A DNA stretch of 64,000 nucleotides from Blastocatellia bacterium (lineage in GTDB: Bacteria > Acidobacteriota > Blastocatellia > UBA7656): assembly GCA_035293105.1 (NCBI GenBank), contig DATDOV010000079.1, positions 101,574 through 165,573 of the forward strand, in the 5' to 3' direction. The notes below the pieces were generated by a model. The model searched no databases, was not told the origin of the DNA, and was given only the letters and a program-made list of their open reading frames with translations. Made by a program: the position numbers and the translations under genes. Positions 4,054 through 53,919 of the stretch are shown here, piece after piece (position 1 is the stretch's first letter; the number at the start of each line of letters is the position of its first letter).

Positions 4054-4153
4054 GGAATAAACGAGGCGCTTCAACGTAGTAACGAATTCATTCGTTCGGT
4101 TTGCTGAGAAACACGCGTCTCGCCAGCGTGGAAACGAATGAATTCGTTACTAC
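4054..4153. repeat. palindromic MITE/REP-like dispersed repeat (copy 1 of 3 loci)
   Basis: Leader ggaataaacgaggcgc, then inverted arms GTAGTAACGAATTCATTCGTTC ... GAACGAATGAATTCGTTACTAC around a ~40-nt loop. Near-identical copies at 53821-53919 and clustered half-copies at 26070-26245. Confidence 0.75.
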
Positions 4154-4326
4154 CAGGGATTACTGCGACAGGCTCCTAGCGGGGCGCGGCCTGCCTTTTG
4201 CGTCGCGCAAATGACCGCAGGCGGCAGTCACCGAAGCGACTTGCCGCCTGCATTCTTGAAGCCCCAGCGCCACAGATCGTTTGTCAGCGTTGCGCTTCAG
4301 GGTTCCTGCCTTGGATGTCACGAATT

Positions 4327-5079
4327 CTAGAACGGCCACTGGAACCCAGACCGGCCTCGATTGCCGTAGCCGCGATAGCCGTCGTCGTAGCCGCGGCGGT
4401 AGCCCTCACGGAAGCCCCGTTGATAGGTGTAGCGGTCGCCGAAGAACGGGTGGTAGCTGCCCAATCCGCTGCGGTAGCCATCCGAGTGCTCGTAGTTGTA
4501 TCGGCGCCGGTGTTTCCGGTCTTCTTCGCCGTGGTGGTGTCCGTCGCGGTAGCCGTTTCGAAGCGCTATCTGATAAGTTCGATTTCGATCGTCGCGTCCG
4601 TAGCCGCGATCCCGGTCGCCGTGATCGCCGCGTCCTCTGTTGTACCCCCCATCGTCCGGGTTGCCGCCTCGTCCATACACGTTGCCTCGATTGTCACCGA
4701 ATAGCCGGTCCACGTCGCGGCGGCTGTAGCGTCGCGAGCGGCGGTTCTGGCCATCGTTGAATCCTACGGTGAAGCCCCGGCGGTACGAGTCGCGGTAGTC
4801 GTCGCGGTAGCCCATCCAATCCCGCCAGCCTGAGGTGTCGTTTCGATAGCCCGGAGTGTCTTTGCAGTTTATGCGATAGCCGTTGCCGAGGGATCGCTCC
4901 CCGTCGGTGTACGCGTTATGGTAGGCGAAAACGTACCCGTACTCCCTGGTGTGTTCCTTGTCCCAGCGTCCGCCGTTCCGGTTGTCGTCGCGCGCATGGG
5001 TTGCGATTCCCGTCCCGAGCACGAGGGCGATTACCATCAGCCCGCTGCTCATCTTGTTCTTGAGTCCCGTCGTATTCAT
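4327..5079 (-). CDS. secreted low-complexity Arg/Gly/Tyr/Asp-rich protein
   Basis: Start at MNTTGLKNK preceded by GGGAGGA. Signal peptide MSSGLMVIALVLGTGIATHA. Remainder is repetitive (G)YR(D/N)G-type low complexity (RGYGRDDRNRTY, GYRRGYDDGYRGYGNRGR). Confidence 0.5.
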   Translation of the reverse strand: MNTTGLKNKMSSGLMVIALVLGTGIATHARDDNRNGGRWDKEHTREYGYVFAYHNAYTDGERSLGNGYRINCKDTPGYRNDTSGWRDWMGYRDDYRDSYRRGFTVGFNDGQNRRSRRYSRRDVDRLFGDNRGNVYGRGGNPDDGGYNRGRGDHGDRDRGYGRDDRNRTYQIALRNGYRDGHHHGEEDRKHRRRYNYEHSDGYRSGLGSYHPFFGDRYTYQRGFREGYRRGYDDGYRGYGNRGRSGFQWPF

Positions 5080-5331
5080 CTTCTTCCTCCCTCGAACCAC
5101 CATCGAACTCGATGATCGCTCGCGCCGATTGGATTACAACCCGAGTGCCAAAGGTGGCCCGCACCGGCGAACCGGTATTCCATTCAACGGCTAAGCTACA
5201 ACGGCGTGGCCCTCGGGCGGATTCAACTTCGGCTATGCGGACCCGAAATGCGAAGCGCGTTCGACGATATCGTGTAAGGCAGAAGCAACAATCGCGATAG
5301 GCGATGAGGACAAGTGACCGTGCCGCGTCGT

Positions 5332-5826
5332 CTACTCGACGACGGCGAGAATCTGGTTAGCGATGACTGTCGCGCCTTCCGTCACACGGACTTCGGCGAC
5401 GTGGCCGCGTTTGGGAGACTTGATCTCGTTCTGCATTTTCATAGCTTCTACGACGACCACGCCCTGGCCCGCCGCGACCTCATCGCCCGGCGCCAGCAAC
5501 ACGCGAACTACCTTACCCGGCATCGGCGCGATCAAATCGTGACGGCCTTCTCCGGCGTGTTCGGTTCCGGCGCGCCGGTGCTTGCGGTCGATGATGCTGG
5601 CGGTGAAGACGCGGTCCCGGAGCTTGACGCGCATGGAGTTCGCTTCGACTGAAGACACTCGCGCTTCGTACACATTATCGCCCGCGAAGATCAGGTAGAC
5701 ACCCTCCTCGGGGCGCTCTATTTCCACGTCGTAGTTTCGGCCGCCGATCGTCGCCGACAGGCGGCCGTTACGCTCCTCCATCTCTATGCTGACATGGTTG
5801 CCGTCGATTTCTGCTTCGTATTTCAT
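5332..5826 (-). CDS. biotin carboxyl carrier (biotin/lipoyl attachment) domain protein
   Basis: C-terminal VVVEAMKMQNEI biotinylation motif (AMKM); lies 13 nt downstream of accC. Confidence 0.8.
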   Translation of the reverse strand: MKYEAEIDGNHVSIEMEERNGRLSATIGGRNYDVEIERPEEGVYLIFAGDNVYEARVSSVEANSMRVKLRDRVFTASIIDRKHRRAGTEHAGEGRHDLIAPMPGKVVRVLLAPGDEVAAGQGVVVVEAMKMQNEIKSPKRGHVAEVRVTEGATVIANQILAVVE

Positions 5827-11598: not shown

Positions 11599-12888
11599 AT
11601 GCGAATCCGAAAGACACTTCTGCGCTTGATCATCGCGTTCCTTCTCGTGGGGACGCCGGCGGGGCTGGCCGCCGCGCAATCAGGCGCTGACGAACGACCA
11701 AAAGTCGCCGGCGAGGTGATCGCCGTGGTGGCCGAACGCCCGCTGCCGGATTATCTGCCTGACAGGCTGGCGGGCGTACAGGCGACCTCTGAAGTCACCG
11801 TCTTCGAGGCCAACGACCTGTCGCGGTTGGTGGCTGGGCGGGTCGCCGCGTTTCGCGAGTATCTTGTCAAAAGGGCGGCCTCGCGAAGCTACGGCGCATA
11901 TCGTATCGACTTGTTCGAAGCCGAAACCGCGTTCGCAGCATTCGGGCTGTTCTCCTACGGCCTGACTGGAAACGCGAGCCGAGTCGGCACCGTTGCCGGA
12001 GCTGTCTGGAACGCCGGCGAGCTCTCATTTAGGCAAGGCAGGTACTTTGTTCGAGTCAGTCAGTCGAGCGGGCGCCCGGGCAAGGAACCCGCGGCGCCGC
12101 AGCTTCGGCTGGCTCGTGAAGTCTCATTAATGGTGCCTCCTGCCAGTCAGACCGAAGCCTTGCCGCCGCTTCTAGCCAGTCTGCCTGCGGGGTACATCCC
12201 GGGCAGCCGGCGGTACTTTCTGGGTCCTGAGGCGCTCGGTTCCCAGGTCGAGCGCGGCGGCGAACTGCTGGGCTTCGCGGGTGACGCCGAAGCGGTGACG
12301 GCGGAATACGCACAAACCGAAGGAGCGACGGGGGGACGGGGAGACGGGGGGACGGGGCGACGCGGAGACGCGGAGAACGACAGGGACGCTTCGCGGTCGC
12401 GCGAGGCCGCGCCGCCGTTGAAGCTCGTGATCGTCGAGTATCACACGCCTCAGTTTGCATTCGACAGCATGGCTCGAGCGAGCGAGTATCTGGAGTCGCT
12501 CAGCGATGACGAGCGCGATCGGATTATCATCAAGCGCCGCGGCAACTACATCGTTGAAGCTACGAACTTCGGCAGTCGCGAGCCGGCCGAACGTCTCGCC
12601 GATTCGGTCGAGTATCCCTACGTCGTGAAGTGGCTGCGCGATCCGCAGTGGCCGGCTGACGACGTGTTCCGCCAGGAAAAGGCGGCGAAGATGCTGTTGT
12701 CGATTTTTGGGATACTCGGTTTGATGGTCCTCGCGGTGCTGGTGATCGGGTCGGCGCTGGGGACGACGATATTCTTCAAGCGGCGCAAGCTCCAGCAAGA
12801 GATATTCTCCGACGCCGGCGGAATGTTGCGGCTGGGGATCAATCAGCTTGAAGCGAAGCTGATCGGGCTGCCACCCAAGAGGGAATAG
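11599..12888 (+). CDS. secreted hypothetical protein with C-terminal membrane anchor
   Basis: Signal peptide LIIAFLLVGTPAGLAAAQS. Gly/Arg/Asp-rich internal tract encoded by a GGAGACGCG-type repeat (12340-12380). C-terminal TM MLLSIFGILGLMVLAVLVIG. Confidence 0.5.
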   Translation: MRIRKTLLRLIIAFLLVGTPAGLAAAQSGADERPKVAGEVIAVVAERPLPDYLPDRLAGVQATSEVTVFEANDLSRLVAGRVAAFREYLVKRAASRSYGAYRIDLFEAETAFAAFGLFSYGLTGNASRVGTVAGAVWNAGELSFRQGRYFVRVSQSSGRPGKEPAAPQLRLAREVSLMVPPASQTEALPPLLASLPAGYIPGSRRYFLGPEALGSQVERGGELLGFAGDAEAVTAEYAQTEGATGGRGDGGTGRRGDAENDRDASRSREAAPPLKLVIVEYHTPQFAFDSMARASEYLESLSDDERDRIIIKRRGNYIVEATNFGSREPAERLADSVEYPYVVKWLRDPQWPADDVFRQEKAAKMLLSIFGILGLMVLAVLVIGSALGTTIFFKRRKLQQEIFSDAGGMLRLGINQLEAKLIGLPPKRE

Positions 12889-12892: not shown

Positions 12893-13022
12893 TGGTTCGT
12901 GGTCCGTTGTTCGGGGTTCGTGGTTAATGGTTTGTAGTTCGTGGTTAGGCCCAGACCGCGCGGACGTACCAACCACAAACGGACTATAGACCACTAACAA
13001 CGGACCACAAACCACAACCTGC
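12893..13022. repeat. symmetric array of GGTTCGTGG / CCACAAACC short repeats (iteron- or operator-like)
   Basis: Four direct GGTT(C/T)GTGG units, a GC-rich centre, then inverted CCAC(A/N)AACC units. Locally AT-richer. Sits between ORF 11599-12888 and the sigma-54 activator gene. Confidence 0.5.
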
Positions 13023-25432: not shown

Positions 25433-26023
25433 ATGCGCGTGAATAAGACTCTCTCTCGCGGCTGGGCTGCGGGCGCGATTCTCGCGGTCAGTCTCGCCGT
25501 TTTAGCCTCCGGGCAATCGCCTCAATCCGGCGCTTCGAGCCGAATCCGAATCAAGAACTTCGGCTGCCTCAACGAGAATTACTATCGCGGCGCGCAACCG
25601 AAAGGACAGGACTACGCCGACCTTGCGGCGCTCGGGATCAAAACCGTCATCGACCTCCAACGCGATGGTCGCAAGGATGAGCAGCAGATGGTCGAGTCGC
25701 ACGGCATGAAGTTCTATCGCATCGGGCTGACCACTTCATCGGCGCCGGACAAGGAGCAGGTTGCGCTTTTCTTGAAGCTGGTCGACGATCCCGCGAATCA
25801 GCCGGTCTTCATTCACTGTCACGGCGGACGACACCGGACGGGGATCATGACCGCGGTCTACAGATTCACCCACGACAGTTGGACCGCCGACCGCGCGTTG
25901 ACAGAAATGAAACAGTACGACTTCGGCAACGGCCATTCGACTCTGAAGGAATACGTCTTCGACTACTACTCCAACATGGACCGCGGAGATCAGGCGGCGA
26001 GGGCGGCTACAAGCAGTCACTGA
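25433..26023 (+). CDS. secreted protein tyrosine/dual-specificity phosphatase
   Basis: RBS AGGAG. Signal peptide. CX5R P-loop [10 protein letters not shown]. Confidence 0.7.
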
Positions 26024-26069
26024 GGAGCCGGTCAATCCGATCGGGCATCTTGCCTGACCTGTTTTTCCC

Positions 26070-26245: not shown

Positions 26246-26294
26246 CGGAGGACCATTCCGAGAGGCTCGTGGCGGCGACGTTGCCGACATCCTT

Positions 26295-32048: not shown

Positions 32049-32136
32049 AGCTTTAGTGGGTCGTAGGATTGGTCCGACGCTTTCGCGATAATCTGCGATT
32101 TGAAGCAATCGAAAACTTGGGATAGGCTTACGTCCC

Positions 32137-33685: not shown

Positions 33686-33727
33686 CCTGCGCGGCCATCG
33701 GTGAAAGAGTACGAAACCCAAACCTGG

Positions 33728-34510
33728 TTATCCGAGGTCGCCGGGACGTACAGTCACTATAGTGAGAACGCGGTTGTAGTATGGCAATAGTATGGAGTCT
33801 TCCCACACCTTCCCAAAAACGTGTCCGGCTAGCCATGCCTCTGCACGTACGGCTCCGTCTTGCTCGCGCTCTTCCGTCGGGCGGAAGAGGTTGCTCGCGA
33901 GGGACTCGACGCTGACTTCAGTACCTTTGCGCTTGATGTAATGCTGGAATTGAGGGCCGGGTCTCCACCATTCAATTATCCCGCTGTCACTAACCACCAA
34001 AGCGCATTGTTCCTCAGTGACGTCGACGCACTTGACAGTAGCTGCGGTTAGCGAGGTCTGAAATTTCGCACTTATCTTTTTCGCGACCACCACGGTTGCT
34101 GACTCTTGTCGAACGATAGTGGCTGCTTGTGCCGATGGAATTAGCAATTCTGACGCGAACCGATTCGCGTCAATCTCGTGTTCTGGTGCGCCGCGGCTCC
34201 ACGATTCGACGTCGCGACTCTTACAAACGCAATCTAGCTCTCCGTGCCCCGGTAGAATGTAATGGCCGAGTTCGTGAGCGATCGTGAATCTCTTCCGGCC
34301 AGGCTCACGTATGGTCGCCTTAACAGCGACGATACCTGTCGGTTTGTTAGGAATACGAACCAACGCGCCTTCGAAACCCTCTGACTCGACCTCGCAAATC
34401 TCCAACCCGATTCTGTCCGCAAGCTCAGATAGATCGGGCGTCGTCGATATCTTGAATCGCCTTAAGAGCGCGCGAGCGAAGTCTTCAGGTTGTGCTGGTG
34501 TCCGATTCAC
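33728..34510 (-). CDS. ImmA/IrrE-family metallo-endopeptidase (COG2856, CapP-like)
   Basis: HEXXH (IAHELGHYIL) followed by EIDANRFASELLIP, the family signature E-x-N-x-F-A-x-x-L-L. Confidence 0.75.
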   Translation of the reverse strand: MNRTPAQPEDFARALLRRFKISTTPDLSELADRIGLEICEVESEGFEGALVRIPNKPTGIVAVKATIREPGRKRFTIAHELGHYILPGHGELDCVCKSRDVESWSRGAPEHEIDANRFASELLIPSAQAATIVRQESATVVVAKKISAKFQTSLTAATVKCVDVTEEQCALVVSDSGIIEWWRPGPQFQHYIKRKGTEVSVESLASNLFRPTEEREQDGAVRAEAWLAGHVFGKVWEDSILLPYYNRVLTIVTVRPGDLG

Positions 34511-34959
34511 TCTGACCCCGTATCGCCCTCGTCAAGCTTGCTTTTCAGCGAATCGAGGATTTCTTTGTCCTTGGAGGAGACCTTCTCGCCAAGCTTACGA
34601 CCGCGTAGCGAGGATACGGCCTCAGCGCCGGCAGAGGGCAGAGTCCCGCTCAACAGGTTAGCTAAGTAGCAGTCGGGGTCAACACCAGCAGACTCCGACT
34701 TCTTCTCTTCTGCACGCCGCAGATTCCTCAGAGCGTTCTCCACTGGGACCGGCACACTTTTGCTTTTCGACCTGAGTTCACGCACTCCAGCTTCGACTCT
34801 TGACATCAGCTTGGAAACCAGATCAGATGAATCAACACCACAAGCCTTAAGCACATCCTTGGCAGTTTCAAGATCAATCTCTTCGTCAGGCCCTAGTAAC
34901 GCCTCGAAGAGTTCATCTTCTTCGGTCTTTGGAAGTGGCTGGGTTCTTTTGTTAGGCAT
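34507..34959 (-). CDS. acidic low-complexity protein (candidate anti-sigma / peptidase substrate)
   Basis: 150 aa, highly charged. Translationally coupled on both sides: 14-nt gap to the upstream gene, 4-nt overlap with ImmA. Confidence 0.4.
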   Translation of the reverse strand: MPNKRTQPLPKTEEDELFEALLGPDEEIDLETAKDVLKACGVDSSDLVSKLMSRVEAGVRELRSKSKSVPVPVENALRNLRRAEEKKSESAGVDPDCYLANLLSGTLPSAGAEAVSSLRGRKLGEKVSSKDKEILDSLKSKLDEGDTGSE

Positions 34960-34973
34960 ACGCGGCCACCTTT

Positions 34974-35561
34974 CTAGTTACCCTTCTGCCGATACTTCAT
35001 CGATCCGGCACGGCGCCAGCCGGTAAGTCTCGTTCTCACTCTCCGCTGGCGGCCCCTCAGTTGCTGAGCGGTTATACCGAGGAACTCTGCAATTTCCTTT
35101 GGCTTTGCTGGCCACAACTCCAGAACCGCCTCAACATAATCCTCCAGTTCTTTCTCCCCTTTTACAAGAGCGTAGATTCTCGCCTTTGTGAGGGCATCGT
35201 GCTCAGCGTTCCCAAGGTCGTCCTCAAAGGCGTCGATTACCCTGAGAGCCTTCTCATGCTTTAGCGAGTCCAGAACGGTACTCCTCTTATACCCGCTGTG
35301 TTTCGTCACTATGTCCAGGAAATCACGCGTCATGACAGTCAGGAGCAACGGATATGGGTCTTCATCGTGTGTCTTGGGCCGCCATTCTACGCCTCTTTGG
35401 AATATGAAGGCTTCAACTGTCTCAACAGCAAAGTCTTCAGCGGATTTCCCAGACCCCGGTAGAACTGATAGCCCTTGACGGACGAATAGCCCTTCGGCAG
35501 CGGCATACAACCGACTTAGCAGGCCTTCCAGATCGACATTCGCGAAGCGTGAATCGTCCAT
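34974..35561 (-). CDS. divergent sigma-70-family (ECF-like) protein
   Basis: Region-2-like SAEDFAVETVEAFIFQR...DPYPLLLTVMTRDFLDIV and region-4-like HTH EIAEFLGITAQQLRGRQRRVRTRL. Confidence 0.45.
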   Translation of the reverse strand: MDDSRFANVDLEGLLSRLYAAAEGLFVRQGLSVLPGSGKSAEDFAVETVEAFIFQRGVEWRPKTHDEDPYPLLLTVMTRDFLDIVTKHSGYKRSTVLDSLKHEKALRVIDAFEDDLGNAEHDALTKARIYALVKGEKELEDYVEAVLELWPAKPKEIAEFLGITAQQLRGRQRRVRTRLTGWRRAGSMKYRQKGN

Positions 35562-35820
35562 TCCGGGACCTCTTCATTCTTAAAGCGAGTCAGGGTCTAG
35601 GAACTGGCAAGAAATCTGTCATCAAGAAATTTTTCTGCCAGTTTTAGCCGACACAGTCGCTTAGACAGTGGAGGTTGGCACCGGCCGATTAGCCGTCATC
35701 TAACAAGAGGCATGCTAACCCACGGAAAGGGCTAAGAGGAAGATCAACCAGACACGGACGATCTGCTTGGACGATCTGCTTGGCCACGACAGCAACCGAA
35801 CCTGAAGGGAGTTATCAACA
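35562..35820. promoter_or_regulatory. divergent control region between sigma/ImmA operon and Ubl operon
   Basis: Inverted repeat AACTGGCAAGAAAT-N13-ATTTTTCTGCCAGTT. GGAACT -35-like element. Tandem 14-mer gacgatctgcttgg x2. Confidence 0.45.
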
Positions 35821-36852
35821 ATGAGCAACAAAACCGATTCAACGGCTGTTGACGATCTCGTCGACGGCCAGTGGCTTGAAGATATCGATGCGGCGCTGCC
35901 TCAGGCGGTCGCCGAGGCCACAGTAGATGGACGGCTGCCCGCGAAAGCTCAACACCTGAAAGTTCAGGTTGGGTTTCGCGAATTGCCGGACGGGCACGAG
36001 GTCAAGTTCAAGGCCTCACTTACGAATACACTGCTGGAAGTGTTCGAATGGGCAGCGCAGGAACTCGGGAAACCTCTACTACCTCCCGCCAGCAACCAGC
36101 CGCTCGATCTATTGCGCTGTCGGGAGCGACACGGCGACGGCTGGAGCGAGCCTATCACAGGCCTCGACCGGCCGCTCTGGCTCGTGTTGGTTGAAAGCTG
36201 CTCTCGACATTTCGGAATCGAATATGTGCTGGCTGTTAAGATCAACACGAAGTGGGCCGTAGCACCGTCCGCAAAAATGACGCCGCGCGAGCTGCTCACT
36301 AGCTTTGGGTTTGATCCCTCTCAATTCAGCCTGTACAAGCCCGATAGCACGGAGCCGCTGCCGGCGGACACGCCGATCCCTCTTCATCGAGGAGAGAGGT
36401 TTGAAGCGCAGAAGGACGGGAAGTATGGAGCGTCGGTGATGGCAGAGCGTCCGGCGCGCGGCTCACAGACGATCGACGATGATCTGGAAGGAATAAGGGA
36501 GGCGGGTATCGACGCCCGCCTCCTCGACTCCAACGGACAAAAGTACGCCGAGGTGAAGGGAATAGCGGTACCGTCGCCTCCTTGGTCTCTGGACAGGCTC
36601 ACACTGCTGTTCGCTATTCCGGCTACGTACCCGACAGGCGGGCTCGACGCGTTCTACATCGAGTTGCCCGTTAGCCACGCTAGCGGTTCCGTTCCGTACC
36701 AATCTCAGACCGCGCAGATCGATGGCAGATCGTGGGGGCTGATCTCATGGCACTATCCGACCGGGCGGCCCTGGAACCCGTCGCATGACGATCTTTCTAC
36801 TCATATCGAGCATTGTCGTGGAGCATTGATGAGGCGTGGGGTGACGCAGTGA
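35821..36852 (+). CDS. multi-ubiquitin (tandem beta-grasp) domains fused to prokaryotic E2-like (UBC-fold) domain
   Basis: Two Ub-like repeats (HLKVQVGFRELPDGHEVKFKASLTNTLLEVFEWAAQELG; LAVKINTKWAVAPSAKMTPRELLTSFGFDPSQFSLYKPDS...IPLHRGERFEA). C-terminal E2-like region (...LLFAIPATYPTGGLDAFYIELPV...ISWHYPTGRPWNPSHDDL...). Confidence 0.55.
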   Translation: MSNKTDSTAVDDLVDGQWLEDIDAALPQAVAEATVDGRLPAKAQHLKVQVGFRELPDGHEVKFKASLTNTLLEVFEWAAQELGKPLLPPASNQPLDLLRCRERHGDGWSEPITGLDRPLWLVLVESCSRHFGIEYVLAVKINTKWAVAPSAKMTPRELLTSFGFDPSQFSLYKPDSTEPLPADTPIPLHRGERFEAQKDGKYGASVMAERPARGSQTIDDDLEGIREAGIDARLLDSNGQKYAEVKGIAVPSPPWSLDRLTLLFAIPATYPTGGLDAFYIELPVSHASGSVPYQSQTAQIDGRSWGLISWHYPTGRPWNPSHDDLSTHIEHCRGALMRRGVTQ

Positions 36853-36854
36853 AA

Positions 36855-38246
36855 ATGCGAATGACCGAACACCACTACCATGAGGTAAAGCGACTTACGT
36901 CTCCTTCCTTCTTGGATGGCATCCGGTTTCCTCCCGAGACAGGTTGCATCGTTTTAGTCGGGCGGAATAATCATCCAACGTATCCGTCAGTCGTAGTGGC
37001 CGATGTGCTGGCGCCCGAGGACGGAGAGTTGATTGAGCGAGAGAGTGATGGTCTCGTCTTCGCGAGCAAGTATTTGCGGCGCGCTCTGTTTCGATTGCGT
37101 GAGAAAGGGCTGGCGGGCTTCCTCACAGTCCACACCCACCCGTTCTCGGACACGCGTGTGAACTTTTCTCCCTATGATGACGCGAATGATCCCTCGCTGA
37201 TGGCAAATCTGTACGAGCTTGAGCCCCACGGCATTTTCGGCAGCATCGTGATGGGCAAAAGATCGGCGAGAGCTCGATTGTGGAATCCGGACGGAGATGG
37301 CTACCGCACACTCGAACCGATGATCATCGTCGGTGAGCGACTGCAATTCTTCAACGCTAATGGTGCCGAGGCCGAGGCGGAACCACAGGCAGCGGAGATC
37401 TTCGACCGCGGCTTGTCGATCACAGGTAGCGGCGCGTTAGCGCGACTCGCCTGCATGCGTGTTGGTCTGATCGGCAGCAGCGGAACCGGCTCTATTATGG
37501 CCGAATTGCTGATGCGCGCCGGTGTTGGCGAGATACTGCTTTTTGAGCCTGACTATGTGGAAGAACCCAACCTGAACCGGATGCTCCATTCCCGGCAGCG
37601 CGACGCGGAAGCTCGTGTAGGAAAGGCGTCCCGGCTGGCTGAAGCTCTTGCCGAGGCTGGTATGCCCACTCAGATCACGGTCGCCTCGGGCGGTGACATA
37701 CGCCGCGAGGAGGTAGCACTTGAGCTACGAGGTTGCGATTTGGTGATTGGTTGTGTTGATCGAGACTGGCCGCGCCTAATACTTTGCGAACTAGCTTATC
37801 AATACTTGATTCCGTACATAGACCTGGGAACAGAGATCGGTTTCGATGGGATTGAGATTCAGAGCCTCGATTCTCGCGTTTCGTATGTTGCGCCTGGTCG
37901 TCCTTGTCTTCTGTGTTCTGGCGTGGTGTCAACCGAGCGCCTTAGGCTGGAAGCACTAGAAGACAGCGAGCGAGACAGAGTTATCGCAATGGGTTACTCG
38001 GAAGACATTAGGCTCATCGCGCCTGCGGTCATGGATCTAAACATGCGCGCTGCCTCTTATGCGATGCTCGTTGTACGTCATCTCCTCCAGCCGTTCCTCG
38101 ATAGGCCGCTGCCGACTCATATCAAAGAATCAATCACTAACTTCAGTGTTCGACGAGTGACCAGTACCCAGAATTCGGACTGTCACGTCTGTGATGGTTC
38201 GAGGCTTGGAGTCGGAGACGCGCGCCGTTTGTCCACGGCTCGTTGA
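36855..38246 (+). CDS. JAB/MPN metalloprotease domain fused to E1-like ThiF/MoeB adenylyltransferase
   Basis: N-terminal JAMM-like motif LAGFLTVHTHPFSD...S..D. C-terminal Rossmann GLIGSSGTGSIMAELLMRAGVGEILLFEPDYVEEPNLNRM with CLLCSG and CHVCDG zinc pairs. Start immediately after the upstream stop. Confidence 0.7.
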   Translation: MRMTEHHYHEVKRLTSPSFLDGIRFPPETGCIVLVGRNNHPTYPSVVVADVLAPEDGELIERESDGLVFASKYLRRALFRLREKGLAGFLTVHTHPFSDTRVNFSPYDDANDPSLMANLYELEPHGIFGSIVMGKRSARARLWNPDGDGYRTLEPMIIVGERLQFFNANGAEAEAEPQAAEIFDRGLSITGSGALARLACMRVGLIGSSGTGSIMAELLMRAGVGEILLFEPDYVEEPNLNRMLHSRQRDAEARVGKASRLAEALAEAGMPTQITVASGGDIRREEVALELRGCDLVIGCVDRDWPRLILCELAYQYLIPYIDLGTEIGFDGIEIQSLDSRVSYVAPGRPCLLCSGVVSTERLRLEALEDSERDRVIAMGYSEDIRLIAPAVMDLNMRAASYAMLVVRHLLQPFLDRPLPTHIKESITNFSVRRVTSTQNSDCHVCDGSRLGVGDARRLSTAR

Positions 38247-38719
38247 TCGTTCTGACTGACTGGAACGCCAATCTTGGGCACGCAGACACGCCGCCGCCAT
38301 ACCCTTTGATCATCCTAATCCAGAACCCAGACGCCGCTTTCGCGAATTGCATCGTACATCGCGTCTGGTGCAAGATCACCACCGTTCGGCCACTGCACCA
38401 CACCCATAACCACTCGCGCTCCGGCAAATACGGCGGCTCGCGTAGCGGCTCGAACACTGTGCCGTCGATCTCAGAGCTGCTGAGAAACGCTCGCATATCT
38501 ACGTTCCCCGGCGTGCCATCGCCGAATCTTACGTGCAATTCCGGGAACGCAAAGACGCGAGAATCTCTAAGATCGCCAAGTGTGCTACCGCTTCAGTCCG
38601 TCACTAGAGGCTCGCGGCGGATTGTTCAGACATAGCCTACAACCAGAGAGACATCTCTCTTCGATTCGCGCTTCTATTCCTACCTTTGTGTTACAATCTC
38701 GCGAAAGGAGCGGAGCCAA

Positions 38720-38953
38720 ATCATTTCCGAGCAAGCCGAGAAAATCCTCGAACAGGCTTTGCAGTTGCCTTCCTCGCAACGCGCAGACCTGGTCGAGCGT
38801 TTGTTGGACAGTCTTGCGTTCGAAACTGACGAACGCATCGATGCGCTGTGGGCTGCCGAGGCCGAGAGTCGCATAGCTGCTTTTCGCCGGGGCGAGTTGT
38901 CGGCGGTACCGTCAGAAGACGTCTTTGCTGAGATCGAAGCGGAGGCTAATTGA
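38720..38953 (+). CDS. addiction-module antitoxin; probable non-ATG (ATC/ATT) start
   Basis: IISEQAEKILEQALQLPSSQRADLVERLLDSLAFETDERIDALWAAE... AAGGAG sits 9 nt upstream of ATC at 38720. First canonical start is an internal TTG at 38759. Confidence 0.5.
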   Translation: MISEQAEKILEQALQLPSSQRADLVERLLDSLAFETDERIDALWAAEAESRIAAFRRGELSAVPSEDVFAEIEAEAN

Positions 38954-39240
38954 AGGTTCAATTCCTCGAACCGGCCAAAGCCGAGTTGAAGGAAGCAGTC
39001 CGCTACTACAACCACCAGAGAGAAGGTCTCGGGCTCGAATTCGCCGCTGAAGTCAGAAAGGCAACTCAGCGAATCGCGAAGCTGCCGAAGGCCTCGCCAC
39101 CAATCTCAGGTGGCGCTAGAAGGTTTCTTCTTCGCAGGTTCCCTTACGGAATCATTTTATCTGGTCGAAGACAAAACGGTGCTTATTGTTGCTGTAATGC
39201 ATCTAGCGCGCGATCCTGTAGTCTGGCAGGAACGGCTGAA
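38950..39240 (+). pseudogene. RelE/ParE-family toxin with +1 frameshift
   Basis: KVQFLEPAKAELKEAVRYYNHQ...RRFLLRRFPYGI, then the conserved tail IYLVEDKTVLIVAVMHLARDPVVWQERLK is in another frame (shift at a T-run near 39160). Confidence 0.6.
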
Positions 39241-39412
39241 GTGACTCGATTATCGTGGCTAGGCTCCGCACCCGCCTCACGATCGAGCTTCCAGTCAAGG
39301 CTAGCGCTCAAAGGCACGGTCGTGGGCCGACTGCTTTGGTTCATGTGGTTCGTCCAACTCCGTGTAGCCACACAGAGCCGAGTCGAGTATACTCGCCAGC
39401 AAGGAGTAGGTC

Positions 39413-39664
39413 ATGACAACGATGTTTCCCATACCTCCGCCGGGGTTTGACCAGCTTTCAGTAGACGAGCAGATCCACTTCGTCGAGTCGCTGTGGGACC
39501 GAATCGCAGTGCATGCCGAACGGGTGCCGGTTCCCGACTGGCATCGCCACGTGCTCGCCGAAAGACTCGCCGCGTATGAGAGCGATCCCGACGCAGGTAA
39601 GCCGTGGGAGGAGGTCCGGGACGAACTCCAGCGAGAACTCCGAGACATTGATCGCCGGAAATGA
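39413..39664 (+). CDS. addiction-module antitoxin
   Basis: MTTMFPIPPPGFDQLSVDEQIHFVESLWDRIAV...DWHRHVLAERLAAYESDP. Confidence 0.6.
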   Translation: MTTMFPIPPPGFDQLSVDEQIHFVESLWDRIAVHAERVPVPDWHRHVLAERLAAYESDPDAGKPWEEVRDELQRELRDIDRRK

Positions 39665-39946
39665 CCAAACAGCGCGTGATCATCCGGCCCGAGGCGCAGC
39701 AGGACCTCCGCGAGGCGGCGCTGTGGTATGAGACTCCCAGGCCGGGCCTCGGAGAGCGTTTCGCAACCAAGATCGAGGGGTTGATCGAGCGAATAGCCGA
39801 CAAAGCCTCGCCAATTCCCTGAGATCGCCCACGGAGTCCGCCGGGCTTGGCTACAGGCATTTCCGTATTCGGTTTACTTCGTCGAATCTCCCGGCACCGT
39901 TTCGCTCATCGCCATTCTTCACCAGCATCGCCACCCCGATACCTGA
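39661..39946 (+). pseudogene. RelE/ParE-family toxin with frameshift
   Basis: MTKQRVIIRPEAQQDLREAALWYE... stops after ...ASPIP. Conserved tail QFPEIAHGVRRAWLQAFPYSVYFVESPGTVSLIAILHQHRHP continues in another frame. Confidence 0.55.
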
Positions 39947-40074
39947 AGCAAATAGACGATCATTATTCACTGGTTGAAACTGGTTGATTATCCACTGACC
40001 CTGGCAGATAATCCGCCACTTGACCGGTGCATGAGAAGCTAGAGGCAGACCGACGTTGCTCTAAACTAGGGGAT

Positions 40075-41088
40075 ATGGAAAACGAACCGCTGGGGCATTC
40101 TGAGATCATCCTCTACCAAACCGAGGACAAGCGTACTCGGATCGAGGTCAGGCTTGAGGACGAGACTGTCTGGCTCAGTCAAAGCCAGATGGCCGAGTTG
40201 TTCCAGACCACCAAACAAAACATCAGCCTCCACGTTAGGAACATCTTCGCTGAGCACGAATTGCAGGAGGACCAAGTTGTCAAGGAATACTTGACGACTG
40301 CAGCCGACGGCAAGAAATACGCAACCGGCCACTACAACCTCGATGTCATCATCTCCGTAGGTTATCGCGTCAAGTCCCACCGCGGCACTCAGTTCCGCAT
40401 CTGGGCGACTCAACGCCTGAGGGAGTACCTGATCAAAGGCTTCGCGCTGGACGATGAGCGGCTCAAAGAAGGCGGCACGAAGAACACTTACTTCGATGAA
40501 CTGCTGGCCCGGATCAGGGACATCCGCGCCTCCGAGAAGAACTTCTACCGCAAGGTCCTGGACATCTACGCGACAAGCATCGACTACGACCTACACTCGG
40601 ATGTCTCTTACGACTTCTTTGCGATCGTTCAAAACAAGATGCACTGGGCGGCGCACGGCCACACCGCAGCCGAGTTGATCGCCGAACGGGCCGACGCCGA
40701 TAAGCCCAATATGGGATTAACCTCCTGGAAAGACCCGAAGGTGCGAAAGTCGGACGTGACCGTCGCAAAGAACTACCTCAACGCCGACGAGATCGAAATC
40801 CTGAATCTGATCGTGAGTCAGTACCTGGACTTCGCCGAGCTTCAGGCCAGAATGAAGAAGGCGATGTACATGCGCGACTGGGTGCGCAAGCTGGACGATT
40901 TTCTGAGAGTGAATGAGCGGGAAATATTGAAGGACGCAGGTAAGATCTCGCATCAGCTTGCTCAGCAGTTGGCCGAAGCTGAGTACGACAAGTTCGAAAA
41001 GAAGCGGTTGGCGGCGGAATCCGAAGCCCCTAACAAGGACTTCGAGGAAGCGGTGAAGACACTCACCTCGCGAAAGCGGAAGAGGTAG
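40075..41088 (+). CDS. RhuM-family (Fic/DOC-related) virulence/defence-associated protein
   Basis: MENEPLGHSEIILYQTEDKRTRIEVRLEDETVWLSQSQMAELFQTTKQNISLHVRNIF... characteristic RhuM N-terminus. Confidence 0.8.
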   Translation: MENEPLGHSEIILYQTEDKRTRIEVRLEDETVWLSQSQMAELFQTTKQNISLHVRNIFAEHELQEDQVVKEYLTTAADGKKYATGHYNLDVIISVGYRVKSHRGTQFRIWATQRLREYLIKGFALDDERLKEGGTKNTYFDELLARIRDIRASEKNFYRKVLDIYATSIDYDLHSDVSYDFFAIVQNKMHWAAHGHTAAELIAERADADKPNMGLTSWKDPKVRKSDVTVAKNYLNADEIEILNLIVSQYLDFAELQARMKKAMYMRDWVRKLDDFLRVNEREILKDAGKISHQLAQQLAEAEYDKFEKKRLAAESEAPNKDFEEAVKTLTSRKRKR

Positions 41089-41384
41089 GCGACACACGCA
41101 CCGATCCGTGCGGCTGCCGGAGTTTGCTGTGAGCTCGCGTGCGGCTGTTTGTTGTCCAATCACTGGTCGCGTCCCGGTCGAGACTGCAACAAGAATGGAT
41201 AGAATTGCGATTGCCCCGGCGCGTCGATGAATTCTGACCGCGCTCGATGTCTTACGCAAAGTTGCGGTTGTTGCGCCAGCCATTCCCGGCCTCCTTAGGT
41301 GGCTACCCTGCCACACTATACACGGACGCAAAACCGGGGCATTTCAATGCATATTCTTTTCGAATCGTACGCGAGAGGGCTTAG

Positions 41385-41717
41385 TTATGAAGTCAAACCG
41401 CGAGGACTCATAGTAGTCCTCGATAGTCTCGTGCGCCGTGAATGATCCGATGAACGAAGATCGTTTGCTCCTCGCAAGTGTAAAAAGATCAGGTAATCCT
41501 GAACGACCAAATAGCGATAACCGAGATCAACCAGCGACGCATCACCAGATACGCGTCCCAGGTATGGGTTCAACGCCAACAGCCTCAGGTTCTTCTCGAT
41601 TCTCTGCGCAAGTGCTTCGGCGGCTTCCGGTCTTTGAGCCGCAATGTAGGTGACGATCTCAGTGAAGTCGTCCTCCGCTGCCCTCAAGAGCCGGACCGTG
41701 TGCTTACGCCGCTTCAC
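41385..41717 (-). pseudogene. RelE/ParE-family toxin with frameshift at a T5 run
   Basis: ...LGYRYLVVQDYLIF then the frame drifts. The +1 frame gives the canonical YTCEEQTIFVHRIIHGARDY tail. Confidence 0.6.
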
Positions 41718-41976
41718 GGATTCTCTTTCGCAGATCTTTCATCACTTGTGAGACCGTCCGGCCTCGGTCGCCACATGCTCGCTGAGCTTGCGCCACCGCT
41801 AGCTTGCTGAAGAGTTCGACTTTGAGTTGAAGCTTGCTGTAATGAGCCATCGACATAACAACCATGTCGCCCTCACCGTTCCTCGTGATGAAGATCGGCT
41901 CATCGATAGTCTCGGCTAGATCAGAGATCTGGTTCGCTTTGTTCCGCAAGTCGGAAATGGGTTTTATGACGGGCAT
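41704..41976 (-). CDS. Phd/YefM-family antitoxin
   Basis: MPVIKPISDLRNKANQISDLAETIDEPIFITRNGEGDMVVMSMAHYSKL. Confidence 0.7.
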   Translation of the reverse strand: MPVIKPISDLRNKANQISDLAETIDEPIFITRNGEGDMVVMSMAHYSKLQLKVELFSKLAVAQAQRACGDRGRTVSQVMKDLRKRIREAA

Positions 41977-42045
41977 CTTCAATCTCCTTCTACCGCGCTG
42001 CAAAATTATATCACTTAAAGATAAAGGAAAGGGGCCAAGGCGATT

Positions 42046-45569: not shown

Positions 45570-45719
45570 TCTCGCATCCTCCCATGCCGGAATACGCCCA
45601 GAGCTGGCGACATCAAGCTGCACACTAACTCCGGGCCGATGATCGGTCAAGCGACTACAGGCTCTGAGGTGCGCGTCAGGTTTTCGCGGTGAGCCGCTCA
45701 AACGGAACTCCATAACCAC

Positions 45720-45990
45720 CTCATCAGAGGTGGGCTGCCTGATGTTCTAGCCTACAACGCACCACGACTGCTCATACCCCCTCGCAGGGGTGGGTTCTTG
45801 ATGCTGCGGCCCTAGCGGCCCTTGCGCACGCGCCTCTCTGGTCGGAGTCGCTCATGGATGCCTCGAACATCAGGGGACCCACCTCTCACACGAGGTGGGT
45901 ATGGGACAAAAGCAGAGGTAAGATCGCGATCTTCTTCGTGTAGGCTGGAGCATCACCGACCCACCTCTCACGAGGTGGGTATGCGCGAAA
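45720..45990. repeat. cluster of four GGTGGG-containing hairpins (REP-like)
   Basis: catcagAGGTGGGctgcctgatg; cgcagGGGTGGGttcttgatgctgcg; gacccacctctcacacgaggtgggtatg; gacccacctctcacgaggtgggtatg. Confidence 0.4.
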
Positions 45991-46077
45991 ACGTGACGCG
46001 CACCTCAGGCTCTGACTCGCTGGCCATCTGCATCGTAGCACCTCCTTGAAGCGGACCGGCGCAATTGCTCGAATGCC

Positions 46078-47157
46078 TTGGATGTGATAGTAAGAGACTT
46101 CAATGACTATCACCGCGAGGTTGAAGTGGTAAAGAGGATTGTCGGCACGCTCGTTGTTGTAGCGCTTCTGTCTGTGTGCAGCTTGTCGCAGACATCGTCG
46201 CAGGCGCCGAATGCCCCGCCCCCCGAAACGCTCGACCAGAAGCTCGGCCCGGACGACGGCGCGGCGCTCGCCATACTGTTCGGCGCCAATCTGCGAGGTA
46301 ACCTCTTCCCCTGCGACTGAAATCATCCCCGCGGGGGGCTGGCGCGGCGCGTCGGCTACGTCGATGGTTTCAAAGCGAAGTTCAAACAGACGCCCGTCCT
46401 GCAAGTCGAGGCCGGAAACTTCTGGTATGACAACACCGGCTACATGGCCGACGTGATGCTCCAGAACGAGCAAGTCGCGATCGCTTACAGCCAGTGGCCG
46501 ATTGATGTCATCAACCTCGGCCGGTTCGACTTGATCTTCGCCCGCAAGCTCCTCACCCGCCAGGGACTCGAGCAGCGAACGGCCGCCGTTCCAATGATCA
46601 AGAACTTGATATCGGCAAACGGTACATTCGAAACTCCCTCGGCCGCGCCGCCCGCGTTCATCATCAAAGAAATCACCGGGCCGCGAATCAAAGGCAAGCT
46701 CGACAAGGTCCGCGTAGGCTTCATCGGCGTGACTGCTCCCGCCAAGATCTCGGGCGGCGTCGATGCAACGGTGACCGACATGTTCGAAGCGGTGCGCAAG
46801 GTCGCCCCCGACGTGCGTAAGCAGTGCGACATACTGGTGATCCTCGCTCACTCGGAGTATGAGCCGGCGCTGCGGCTCGCGCGAGAGAATCCCGAAGCCG
46901 ACATCGTCATTTCCGGCAACGCCGAAGGAAACTACGGGCCGCAACGGATCGGGAAGACCTTGGTGCTGGTTGCCGCGCCCGGAAACACCCAGGAAGGCGA
47001 CCTTCGTGTGTACATCGGCGAGGATGGAAGCTTCAGCTATAAGTTCCGCTCGCCCGACCTGGACGCCGAGGTACCCTCCGATCCCGAGGCGATGGCTTAT
47101 GCGGAGGCCGCTCGCAATGAGCTTCATCGCTTCCGTTCGAGCGGGATGCGCCGCTGA
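46078..47157 (+). pseudogene. secreted metallophosphoesterase (5'-nucleotidase N-domain)-like protein with in-frame TGA
   Basis: Signal peptide. LAILFGANLRGNLFPCD-[TGA 46318-20]-NHPRGGLARR... continues in frame to 47157. The stop sits at the Gly of the GNH[DE] motif. Motif I is degenerate. Confidence 0.5.
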
Positions 47158-51906: not shown

Positions 51907-51959
51907 CGACCGGAAGATAGCACAAGGTCTCCGCGATGTCTTTCCCTCCACCTCCAGCC

Positions 51960-53588
51960 TCAGAACGAATACAGGAACGCGAGGCTCGCCCAGTTGAGCT
52001 TCCGAGTCGCGGCCGGCTGTTTGAACCACTCGGTCAGCAATCGGCGATACTCGAGAGCGACGGTGAAACTCGGAGCGAATCTGTACTGGCCGTTGATCAT
52101 GAAAGTCTGATTGCGCTTGCGAAGCCCCGCCAGCAGGTCCTGGTCTCGATTGGCCTCGATCCCGTATCCGGCATTCGTGCTCAGCTTCTTCCACCCGCCC
52201 TCATAACCAGCGGGCGCTTCCGCGTGGACTTCAAACCACCCGCCGGTCGAGTTGATCCCGCGCGCGTGGCCATTGATCACGACTGACGATTGGGCGATGT
52301 TGCCCGACAGAATACCGAGAGCGCGGCCGTGGAACAACTCGCCGGTCACCCGCACACCCGAGCTCAGCCATGCGTTCAAGTCTCCGCTCACGCCGTACGA
52401 GTCGATCGGGCTGTGCTCGAGCGTGCCGCTGGGGTTTCCCGGTACGCCGAGCAACCGCGAATAATGGCCGCTCACCCCGAACGAAGATTCCCTGCCGCGT
52501 GAAGGCGTTGCCAGTCCGATGCGAGCTTCGAAGGCCGGCAGCGATCCGCGTTCACCCAACCCGGGCGCTCTGAACGCCGGATTGCCTGAGCTGTCGCCGG
52601 CGTTCGGGTCGAGCATCGCAGCGGTCAGTATCAGCTTCGACTGCCCCCCGATTCTCTCGCGGTGCTCGTAGCGGATCTGTGGGATTCGATTGAACAGGTT
52701 TCCCGAAGCCGAAAACCCCGCGGTCGCATAAGAGGCCAGCGTCGTCGGATTGAGCGGCGCGAAGACCGTCCAGTCCTGACCGGCTTCGATTGAGTCCTCG
52801 GCCCAGTCGATCCTCCCGTACGCGAGCCGCACGCGGAACAGGTCGAAGTCGATGCCGCTCGGAACAGCCGGCTTTCCGCCGAACAGGTCGAATTCGAACA
52901 CGCCGGTCAGCTTCGCTCCGTCAAGTACGTTTCCTTCGTAGCGCAGGCCGAATCGCGTCTGCCGCGCCGTCATGTTGAAGTTCTGATGATTCTGGTCCGG
53001 CGAGCTTCCCGACTTCTGCGCGAATAGCGGAATGTCGGAATTGTTCGACCCGCGATCAACGTAGTTCGTGTTCAGCAGGACGCTGCCGTAGATCTTCACC
53101 GGTACTTTAGACAGCGAAGTCACATCACCCGAGCTCTGCTTGTCCGGCGCGCCGGTTTGCTTCGCGCTGGCTGCTGTTTCCAATGCGGCCGACGTGACTC
53201 CGGGAGCGGGACCTTCATCGGTCTTCTTCAAAGCCGCGAGGACTTCGACCGTGTGCGCGCTGGTCTGTTCGAGACGAGCGAGCGACGCCTGCAACTCGGT
53301 GATTGCATCATTGGCGCGGCGGGCGGTTTCAAGCGCCTGAGCTGCCTGACTCTGGGCGGCTTTTGCGTCGCGGGCGGCGTTACCTGCGGCGGTCTCCGCG
53401 ATTTGCGCGCGAGCTTCGGCAGCCCTGGCCCGCTCCTCAGCCGTCGCGAGGCGAGCGGCGACCCGTCGAAGCACGGGCCTCCTCGTTGCGCGGGCTCGCG
53501 GCTTCTCTTGGGCGAGCGCCTGACCTGACTGAACCCCGATGAACGCGGCGACGGCTAACGACACCAGTATTAACGGCTTGTTGTTCAT
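51960..53588 (-). CDS. outer-membrane porin with N-terminal coiled coil
   Basis: Signal peptide, Ala/Gln-rich coiled coil, beta-barrel region ending ...WASLAFLYSF. Confidence 0.6.
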   Translation of the reverse strand: MNNKPLILVSLAVAAFIGVQSGQALAQEKPRARATRRPVLRRVAARLATAEERARAAEARAQIAETAAGNAARDAKAAQSQAAQALETARRANDAITELQASLARLEQTSAHTVEVLAALKKTDEGPAPGVTSAALETAASAKQTGAPDKQSSGDVTSLSKVPVKIYGSVLLNTNYVDRGSNNSDIPLFAQKSGSSPDQNHQNFNMTARQTRFGLRYEGNVLDGAKLTGVFEFDLFGGKPAVPSGIDFDLFRVRLAYGRIDWAEDSIEAGQDWTVFAPLNPTTLASYATAGFSASGNLFNRIPQIRYEHRERIGGQSKLILTAAMLDPNAGDSSGNPAFRAPGLGERGSLPAFEARIGLATPSRGRESSFGVSGHYSRLLGVPGNPSGTLEHSPIDSYGVSGDLNAWLSSGVRVTGELFHGRALGILSGNIAQSSVVINGHARGINSTGGWFEVHAEAPAGYEGGWKKLSTNAGYGIEANRDQDLLAGLRKRNQTFMINGQYRFAPSFTVALEYRRLLTEWFKQPAATRKLNWASLAFLYSF

Positions 53589-53820
53589 GAGTGCTCCTCG
53601 TGTTGATGTTTTGCTCAGAGAATATAGAGCCGGATCTCAGCCGGATATATGACTGGCATCACGCGCGATTGTGACGGCCGAACGAGCGAACCGAAGATTA
53701 GCGGAGTTGCATTGGAGGGTCGTGTGAGCGGGTGACGTTCTATCCGGAGAGGCGCGGCGCGCGCGAACCGATAATGCCGGAGTGGTGAAGCCGACGGCTC
53801 GTTCTACGCAGGAGGCTGTC

Positions 53821-53919
53821 GGAATAACGAGGCGCCTCTTCGTAGTAACGAATTCATTCGTTCTGTTCGTTGAGAAATGCGCGTCTCGCCAACGTGGGAA
53901 CGAATGAATTCGTTACTAC
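53821..53919. repeat. palindromic MITE/REP-like dispersed repeat (copy 3)
   Basis: ggaataacgaggcgcctcttcGTAGTAACGAATTCATTCGTTC...GAACGAATGAATTCGTTACTAC; about 90% identical to 4054-4153 including the leader. Confidence 0.75.

Follow-up and report, generated by a model that had tools for sequence, protein, structure and literature searches.

Palindromic repeats at three intergenic loci of a Blastocatellia genome are copies of a GTAG-class REP/REPIN element

Among described bacterial repeats, the closest counterparts of those considered here are the repetitive extragenic palindromes (REPs) and bacterial interspersed mosaic elements (BIMEs) of Escherichia coli, with their REP-associated tyrosine transposase (RAYT; also TnpA_REP or YafM), and the REP doublets forming hairpins (REPINs) of Pseudomonas fluorescens SBW25 (Bertels and Rainey, 2011, PMC3116915). 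We analyzed a 64-kb stretch of DNA (contig DATDOV010000079.1 of assembly GCA_035293105.1, positions 101,574 to 165,573; hereafter the window) from a metagenome-assembled genome (MAG) of a member of the Blastocatellia (Acidobacteriota) with a GC content of about 61%, in which palindromic repeats lie at three loci, here called A, B, and C. These repeats are like the E. coli and SBW25 systems in having a 5′ GTAG joined to a short palindrome, in being extragenic and arranged as inverted doublets that form long hairpins or as clusters of alternating or direct units, in lacking target-site duplications, and in being linked to the gene of a Y1 HUH transposase that has the repeats on its flanks (a REPtron), a linkage that in the present case was seen in relatives. 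They differ in that their stem (AACGAA/TTCGTT) is perfect and AT-rich in a genome of ~61% GC, whereas E. coli REPs are GC-rich and bulged; in that the associated RAYT clade is neither group 2 nor group 3 of Bertels; in their hosts, which belong to the Acidobacteriota, Chloroflexota, and Cyanobacteria and not to the Gammaproteobacteria; and in having one identical REP core in several phyla, where classical REP families are for the most part confined to a genus or species. The three palindromes are copies of a GTAG-class REP/REPIN element, a type of small non-coding hairpin whose spread within bacterial chromosomes is attributed to a domesticated tyrosine transposase, the RAYT.

Two further bodies of work frame this assignment. 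The GTAG-tagged REP superfamily (Di Nocera et al., 2013, PMC3733652) shares with the present repeats the GTAG, a stem of 6–9 bp, a short loop, occurrence both as singletons and in clusters, HH dimers with GTAG on the outside, and sub-families that differ by complementary stem changes. The GTAG repeats surveyed in 2013 came from Proteobacteria, Cyanobacteria, Chloroflexi, and the PVC group, and Acidobacteria were not reported as hosts (PMC3733652). The exact sequence of our REP does not occur in the text or supplements of that paper, the consensus sequences of its Figure 1 lying outside the comparison, and a full-text literature search for the REP sequence returned only unrelated primer matches. 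For the enzyme, the description of TnpA_REP subclass 2.8 drew on 8 members, all cyanobacterial and with long GT[AG]G REPs, and remarked on relatives in other phyla (Quentin et al., 2018, PMC6006769). Because both the GTAG-tagged REP class and the RAYT clade are already in the literature, this is a known kind of element, of a new sequence family and in a new host group, and reading the palindromes as REPINs means that no new mechanism is needed. What is new is the Acidobacteria, and specifically the Blastocatellia, as hosts of GTAG REPs, the size of the HYH-type RAYT clade, and an AT-rich REP core that is identical across at least five phyla.

Six copies of the 22-nt arm GTAGTAACGAATTCATTCGTTC, none with more than one mismatch, lie at three intergenic loci of the window, and two degenerate copies carry a 1-nt insertion apiece (Table 1), while none of 100 dinucleotide shuffles contained a match (chance expectation 0). 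The existence of a palindromic family at three intergenic loci, first proposed in a preliminary description made from the sequence, is therefore confirmed. In total there are eight REP units at three extragenic loci (A, 4043–4177; B, about 26024–26270; C, 53810–53924 plus a doubtful degenerate right arm), five of the eight cores being exact 22-mers and a sixth having a single mismatch. No extra copy, intact or degenerate, was found in the window by blastn-short, the matches of which at 8622 and 43839 lie inside coding sequence and were rejected as chance. Each unit reads GTAG-T-AACGAA-TTCA-TTCGTT-C, with the 5′ GTAG at the foot of a short palindrome as is characteristic of REPs, and on its own folds as DNA at −4 kcal/mol, with a stem of 6 bp and a loop of 4 nt. 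At A and C, two such units form an inverted doublet with GTAG on the outside and a 34-nt spacer, which is the REPIN layout, and the doublets fold at −25.1 kcal/mol (A, z = −7.5) and −28.3 kcal/mol (C, z = −9.0). Locus B consists of three direct REP-plus-spacer units and one inverted REP, so arranged that the end of the array also fits the REPIN layout. Tandem Repeats Finder reported a period of 45 nt and 3.1 copies here (26076–26212), closed by one inverted arm, in agreement with the earlier account of three tandem left arms and a right one.

Over 94 nt (4060–4153 vs. 53826–53919), A and C share 89% identity, and GAATTC, an EcoRI site, is present in every arm, as had been noted at the outset. 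The dimensions given in the preliminary description need some revision: the loop between the 22-nt arms measures 34 nt instead of ~40 nt; the perfect arms of C reach 27 nt; and a shared leader does exist but is about 33 nt rather than 16 nt long. This leader, AGGAGSCNGTYGGAATAA(A)CGAGGCGCYTC…, lies ahead of the left REP not only in A and C but also in three other Blastocatellia loci (L081, L091, and L102; L numbers denote loci from other assemblies), and a degenerate inverted partner lies on the right side in A and L091. As the leader, or outer arm, is part of the repeated unit, the elements are longer than first described; in the related STL-ACI6 MAG, doublets sit inside palindromes of ~170 nt. 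Loops and leaders show homology among A, B, and C, and likewise within the STL-ACI6 MAG; it is therefore the whole doublet, spacer included, that is copied as a unit. The arms of A and C differ at only 1/44 positions, compared to 6/34 in the loops (~18%; 28/34 identical), which argues that the arms are under constraint.

Copies of the core were found far beyond the window. An exact search of species-representative genomes (596 Gb, both strands) with the 21-mer GTAGTAACGAATTCATTCGTT gave more than 108 stretches among the matches listed, which are a lower bound and fall in 29 species genomes representing at least five phyla; by our own arithmetic, about 0.3 chance matches would be expected. The genomes among these matches comprised 14 Acidobacteriota (mostly Blastocatellia), 9 Chloroflexota, 3 Cyanobacteria, and one each of Poribacteria, Gemmatimonadota, and unclassified affiliation, and one related Blastocatellia MAG had at least 38 8-kb blocks with the 21-mer. 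The host contigs span 44–66% GC, indicating that they do not stem from one mis-binned organism. There were no matches to the 21-mer in viral contigs, so that a phage vector is without any sign, and all-against-all clustering of open reading frames (ORFs) found no recurrent gene beside the REP copies, as expected for a dispersed repeat. In 108 loci from other genomes, with up to 3 mismatches allowed, neighboring units formed 77 pairs with GTAG outside, 57 head-to-tail pairs, which stem from a few large arrays, and 4 pairs with GTAG inside. Conservation falls sharply beyond the 21–22-nt core, with the exception of a C that precedes GTAG in 79% of copies; among genomes the spacers measure 6–36 nt, and they are conserved within a lineage only. 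The preliminary description had made the reality of its family depend on additional genomic copies and a conserved secondary structure; the former are abundant, and the latter is seen in a covarying hairpin, described below.

Very large clusters of mixed REP variants were observed in two Oscillatoria genomes, one a MAG and one a named strain (L059, 3273–3726, and L062, 30–380). They consist of 4–10 direct exact REPs at 30–32-nt spacing followed by 4–7 inverted copies of a C:G variant at 32–36-nt spacing, and both are located at contig ends. An identity as CRISPR repeats was considered for these arrays of 30-nt period and ruled out, since the 9–11-nt "spacers" are constant and far too short.

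In other genomes, this REP type is physically linked to one clade of RAYT. Across 90 loci fetched for their RAYT genes, GTAG-headed perfect hairpins occur at 2.35 per kb within 300 nt of the RAYT genes compared to 0.23 per kb elsewhere, a ten-fold difference. The closest RAYTs are flanked by GTAGTRACGA-N-TTYA-N′-TCGTT, and more distant RAYTs by repeats with other stems. The A:T stem variant seen in the window adjoins the RAYTs of L109, L197, and L208, and the L208 cluster holds A:T, T:A, and C:G variants together; a RAYT flanked by REPs of the same type, the defining feature of a REPtron, is present in these three loci and in L006. When N and N′ were left free in the search pattern, they formed a Watson–Crick pair in 62/62 copies (47 C:G, 11 T:A, and 4 A:T), with no G:T, at the RAYT-anchored loci, which had been chosen for the gene and not for the REP; this is direct covariation support for the small hairpin and suggests that the N:N′ pair is the one position that is not read by the enzyme.

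The same symmetry could be taken for that of a protein-binding site. Every arm is a near-perfect dyad, and the 16-bp near-palindrome AACGAAT-N2-ATTCGTT, with at least two copies per promoter region, could be the operator of a dimeric transcription factor and mark its regulon, all the more since the three loci all lie upstream of a gene start, at distances of 22 to 230 nt. However, the neighboring genes are functionally unrelated (a DUF6941 protein, an ornithine cyclodeaminase-family protein, and an unknown 542-aa protein), the same 21-mer recurs in five phyla, in arrays of at least 10 copies and around RAYT genes, and the asymmetric conserved GTAG head together with the compensatory stem changes fits a folded single strand and not a duplex. 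An operator is therefore extremely improbable.

The enzyme linked to the repeat is exemplified by a 199-aa gene in L006 (Chloroflexota), with an HYH motif and the tyrosine motif YIHINPVKHGY, which scores 100 bits against the NCBIfam equivalog NF047646 (REP_Tyr_transpos; cutoff 80). GTAGTGACGATTTCAATCGT doublets lie on both sides of this gene, and the same cluster holds one exact copy of the 21-mer from the window. A profile built from 32 homologs had E. coli TnpA_REP (4ER8) as its sole match in the PDB (E = 1e-11). The family is large, with 666 protein clusters at E ≤ 1e-10 for a first query and 1059 at E ≤ 1e-20 for a second, and the best 120 listed per search are nearly all ~199 aa long and 57–94% identical to the query; taxa named among the matches listed are Chloroflexota, Anaerolineae, Terriglobia, and one Nitrososphaerales MAG. 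In the alignment (A2), N85, H86, H88, W127, Y147, H149, N151, and P152 are invariant, as are P26, P30, P31, and P33, and Y87 and Y128 are present in at least 90% of the sequences. The length of ~199 aa, the NHYH, W[YH] (W-Y in the RAYTs next to this REP type), and YIHxNP motifs, the proline-rich N-terminus, and the flanks with long GT[AG]G REPs are all traits of TnpA_REP subclass 2.8 (PMC6006769), in exact agreement with its published diagnosis. By matching motifs, rather than by a joint phylogeny, the RAYTs of these relatives thus fit that subclass. In comparison to its published sample, which was limited to 8 members from Cyanobacteria, the present set extends to 1059 clusters, and the REP is also found in Blastocatellia and Chloroflexota.

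Two further observations concern these RAYT loci. A homolog (P0169) that is 69% identical to the L109 protein is labeled as belonging to a Nitrososphaerales archaeon MAG, which might reflect mis-binning or a transfer into Archaea. Moreover, REP hairpins of the C:G variant occur inside called ORFs beside RAYT genes (L194 at 112, 2218, 3599, and 5291; L206 at 990–1035; L207 at 994–1039), the ORFs encoding a ResIII helicase, an N6_N4 methylase, and a 407-aa protein; this recalls a published remark on REP insertions in genes.

Taken together, we hypothesize that the elements are non-autonomous REPINs that a RAYT, its gene lying in another part of the genome, mobilizes in trans, a reading to which we assign a probability of roughly 0.8. 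The REP-like interpretation offered initially is thereby upheld, given the GTAG-headed REPs, the REPIN doublets, and the RAYT linkage in related genomes. Binding of REPs and cleavage at CT or CA have been shown for the TnpA_REP proteins of E. coli, Stenotrophomonas, and Marinomonas (PMC8266576). By homology with these enzymes, a RAYT (TnpA_REP, a Y1 HUH enzyme), encoded once elsewhere in the genome, would bind the folded top strand, i.e., the REP hairpin with its 5′ GTAG, on single-stranded DNA, cleave at a nearby CT or CA, make a 5′-phosphotyrosine intermediate, and rejoin the strands. Whole doublets, comprising leader, REP, spacer, and inverted REP, would in this way be copied to new intergenic sites without target-site duplication, and the direct array at locus B might grow or shrink by slippage or by RAYT-mediated rejoining. 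Y1/HUH transposases leave no target-site duplications, and by direct reading none was found at any of the three loci, whether the boundaries were taken at the core or at the extended element, which is as expected from such chemistry.

Several points weigh against this hypothesis. No RAYT was found in the window, whether by blastp with an E. coli YafM sequence, by a scan for HUH and Y motifs, or by the 32-RAYT profile hidden Markov model (HMM) run over all ORFs of at least 40 aa, and among the 108 genome loci only L006 gave a match. It is thus from other genomes that we infer the REP–RAYT linkage in this organism, and this Blastocatellia genome would itself carry such a RAYT, mobilizing these copies. 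No named Blastocatellia RAYT was among the best 120 matches listed per search. No orthologous empty site was found, the synteny with L007 and L055 stopping before the insertion points, and locus C shows no difference in other assemblies of the same organism. As for locus B, the difference in unit number described below could be assembly collapse and not biology. Finally, to our knowledge, transposition of REPINs in vivo has not been directly demonstrated in any system; the published evidence consists of in vitro cleavage and rejoining and of population genetics.

These gaps lend some room to a variant in which the RAYT has been lost in this lineage, so that the copies are orphan or decaying REPINs, immobile relics maintained only by drift or through some use to the host, such as that of RNA hairpins. 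Such decay would agree with the lack of a RAYT in the window, with the degenerate units with indels at locus B, and with the right outer arm of C, which is barely recognizable. However, five of the eight cores are exact and a sixth has one mismatch, although the loops have diverged by ~18%, which implies either recent copying from a master sequence or continuing constraint; in addition, the exact 21-mer is kept in 14 Acidobacteriota genomes, and a single-copy RAYT would rarely be expected within any given 64-kb window. We thus regard orphan REPINs as unlikely, and retain REPINs served by a resident RAYT.

A different origin, that of miniature inverted-repeat transposable elements (MITEs), had also been put forward initially. 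Bacterial MITEs (Correia/NEMIS, Nezha, and ERIC) and IS200/IS605-derived elements are, like the present repeats, small, non-coding, palindromic, intergenic, and mobilized in trans, and palindromic elements of ~100–140 nt that are dispersed, intergenic, and bounded by long inverted arms would be compatible with deletion derivatives of a DDE-type insertion sequence (IS) that move by cut-and-paste via their terminal inverted repeats. Classical MITEs, however, have DDE-recognized terminal inverted repeats and target-site duplications, neither of which was seen here, and no direct duplications flank the core or extended boundaries at the three loci. The arms instead bear the signature of GTAG plus hairpin; REPs often stand singly or in head-to-tail arrays (the 57 pairs above), which transposition dependent on terminal inverted repeats does not yield; and the only gene that is repeatedly flanked encodes the Y1 RAYT. 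A parent IS with the same terminal inverted repeats was found neither in the window nor in 208 fetched loci. IS200/IS605 derivatives have differing left and right hairpins and multi-copy transposases, unlike the single hairpin type present here in both orientations, and the enzyme here matches the REP-associated equivalog. With the associated enzyme being of the Y1/HUH type, the MITE interpretation is dropped as very improbable in favor of REPINs.

The stability of the hairpins (z = −7 to −9) raises the question of a function in RNA. The genes on either side of each of the three loci are co-directional, a stop codon lies 6 nt from the C hairpin, and an influence of E. coli REPs on mRNA decay and translation has been reported (Liang et al., 2015, as cited in PMC12306157); hence the elements could be cis-acting RNAs, namely terminators, mRNA-stabilizing 3′ hairpins, or small RNAs, spread by duplication without a transposase. 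However, Rfam 15 gave no match at gathering score, and the stem is AT-rich, with no U-tract or T-run after the hairpins on either strand, for which reason the hairpins are not called intrinsic terminators (none was called on the element in a consensus scan that covered the surroundings of locus A only). Orientation to transcription differs, the genes at A and C being on the minus strand and those at B on the plus strand, neither the length nor the sequence of the loop is kept among genomes, and the 62/62 strictly Watson–Crick pairs without G:T give no hint of pairing at the RNA level. The only Rfam model at E ≤ 1 was a plant miRNA precursor (E = 0.92; 27 bits, with 90 required), which we rejected as a chance match. 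A structured RNA as the primary identity, another suggestion of the preliminary description, is accordingly abandoned: with no Rfam match, loops of 6 to 36 nt, and an orientation that varies between loci, it appears quite improbable, and an RNA function, if any, would come second to the REPIN identity. Effects on neighboring genes are conceivable in this secondary sense. Long RNA hairpins may protect 3′ ends, and the C hairpin, 6 nt past the stop codon, might stall terminating ribosomes by analogy with E. coli REPs, for which a hairpin near the stop codon is a geometry reported to do so (Liang et al., 2015, as cited in PMC12306157).

Locus B looks like a local amplification of the REP-plus-spacer unit. 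Two independent assemblies of a strain that is ~99.8% identical (L199 and L200) have two direct units where the window has three; the 45 nt that they lack correspond to the 3′ part of unit 1 plus the 5′ part of unit 2; the unit they retain has an intact REP core. This difference may be either a real slippage polymorphism or an assembly collapse. Contigs L201, L202, and L205 end inside REPINs. With this one-unit difference and with several short-read contigs breaking in the repeats, the proposed use of the family as a strain marker and its potential as a recombination substrate are plausible. More generally, the repeats can be masked or annotated as REPINs, serve as strain markers, and be expected to break short-read assemblies.

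REPIN–RAYT systems have been viewed as lineage-specific and vertically inherited (PMC5581495), a picture drawn from Pseudomonas and enterobacteria. An identical core in several phyla sits uneasily with this view, and fits the patchy distribution that Quentin et al. put down to horizontal transfer (PMC6006769). Given that the core is found in Acidobacteriota, Chloroflexota, Cyanobacteria, Poribacteria, and Gemmatimonadota and that the RAYTs are 57–94% identical, we tentatively raise, while leaning against it on balance, the possibility that a REPIN–RAYT lineage consisting of this REP and a subclass-2.8-like RAYT has crossed phylum boundaries. If true, this would run counter to the strictly vertical, lineage-specific picture and would make available for study a REP recognition code of unusual rigidity, with variation at only one base pair of the stem and one base of the loop. 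In any case, GTAG-type REPs and the little-studied HYH (subclass 2.8-like) RAYT clade are extended to the Blastocatellia, and the near-invariant REP across phyla opens the questions of a horizontal spread of REPIN–RAYT systems and of how a RAYT reads its hairpin.

The window is chromosomal, encoding biotin carboxylase, PEP carboxykinase, and a Clp ATPase, and all three loci sit between co-directional called genes of unrelated function. Locus A lies between genes for an unknown 258-aa protein and a DUF6941 protein, both on the minus strand. Locus B lies on the plus strand between a dual-specificity phosphatase gene, directly after whose TGA stop (26021–26023) its left flank starts, and an ornithine cyclodeaminase-family gene, with the right outer arm ending 24 nt before the ATG at 26295. 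Locus C is bordered by genes for a GFO_IDH_MocA oxidoreductase and an unknown 542-aa protein, again on the minus strand, and the stop codon to which its hairpin foot comes within 6 nt is that of the former (53931–53933). The parts of the three loci are given in Table 1.

Table 1. Component parts of the REP/REPIN loci A, B, and C, in window coordinates.
Feature	Coordinates	Strand	Remarks
A left outer arm / leader (AGGAGCCGGTTGGAATAAACGAGGCGCTTCAAC)	4043–4075	+	common to locus C and Blastocatellia L081, L091, L102; outer end pairs with 4171–4177 in minimum free energy and centroid folds
A left REP, GTAG head and hairpin AACGAA-TTCA-TTCGTT	4076–4097	+	exact match
A REPIN spacer/loop, 34 nt	4098–4131	.	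homologous to loops of C and B unit 3
A right REP, inverted, 1 mismatch	4132–4153	-	doublet 4076–4153 folds
A right outer arm (…GATTACTGCGACAGGCTCCT)	4154–4177	.	degenerate leader complement, about 15/20 bases; GGCTCCT pairs with AGGAGCC in fold
B left flank, begins GGAGCCGGT, leader-like motif as in A	26024–26079	+	11-nt GAGGAGCCGGT identical to A; homology of remainder uncertain
B direct REP unit 1	26080–26101	+	exact match; in 45-nt tandem array
B direct REP unit 2, degenerate (GTAGTAACGAAATTCAATCGTTC)	26124–26146	+	repeat family D4
B direct REP unit 3, left arm of terminal doublet	26169–26190	+	exact match; pairs with 26224–26246 in fold
B inverted REP, 1-nt insertion (GAACGAATGAATTCGATTACTAC)	26224–26246	-	sequence, fold
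B right outer arm (GGAGGACCATTCCGAGAGGCTCG)	26247–26270	.	alignments: resembles A right arm and leader complement
C leader (AGGAGGCTGTCGGAATAACGAGGCGCCTCTTC)	53810–53841	+	alignments
C left REP	53842–53863	+	exact match
C REPIN spacer/loop, 34 nt	53864–53897	.	alignments
C right REP	53898–53919	-	exact match; perfect 27-nt arms 53837–53863 / 53898–53924 (I11)

Other repeats were also observed in the window. A palindromic element of 188 nt at 31399–31586 consists of two 50-nt inverted arms that are 88% complementary, and its arm hairpins, CACCTCAC-TTCA-GTGAGGTG, have the TTCA loop of the REP without a GTAG head; it is present in a single copy in the window and was not found in 205 fetched loci. 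The heptamer TGGTTCG is repeated ~7.7 times at 12893–12946, with an inverted partner at 12990–13014, 72 nt away, and heptamer or octamer runs flank REPINs elsewhere (GTGATTC-like in L071, L077, and L097; GGAGACT in L064 and L089). A second dispersed repeat family is made up of G-rich arrays with a period of 8 bp at 12327–12376, 55953–55998, and 56170–56249, containing GACGGGGA ~6 times, GGAGACGC ~5 times, and the reverse-complement CCCGTCTC ~10 times; their arms are up to 90% complementary across 44 kb, and the arrays lie inside long mechanical ORFs although such a period cannot be coding. Unrelated to the REP family are a 25-nt inverted repeat (45664–45688 / 45984–46008; 96% complementary, 295 nt apart) and a 27-nt direct repeat (45885–45911 / 45965–45991; 85% identical, 80 nt apart) around the 3′ end and downstream of a minus-strand ORF at 45886–47127.

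Finally, the region from ~28000 to 42000 has a GC content of 0.53–0.57, compared to 0.61–0.63, and holds three diverged copies (80–91%) of a ~300-nt segment of DUF488 paralogs. It encodes toxin-antitoxin-like proteins (Unstab_antitox, DUF4160, DUF2442, DUF433, and DUF4926), a DNA methylase, and a ThiF-family protein, and looks like an accessory or defense island.

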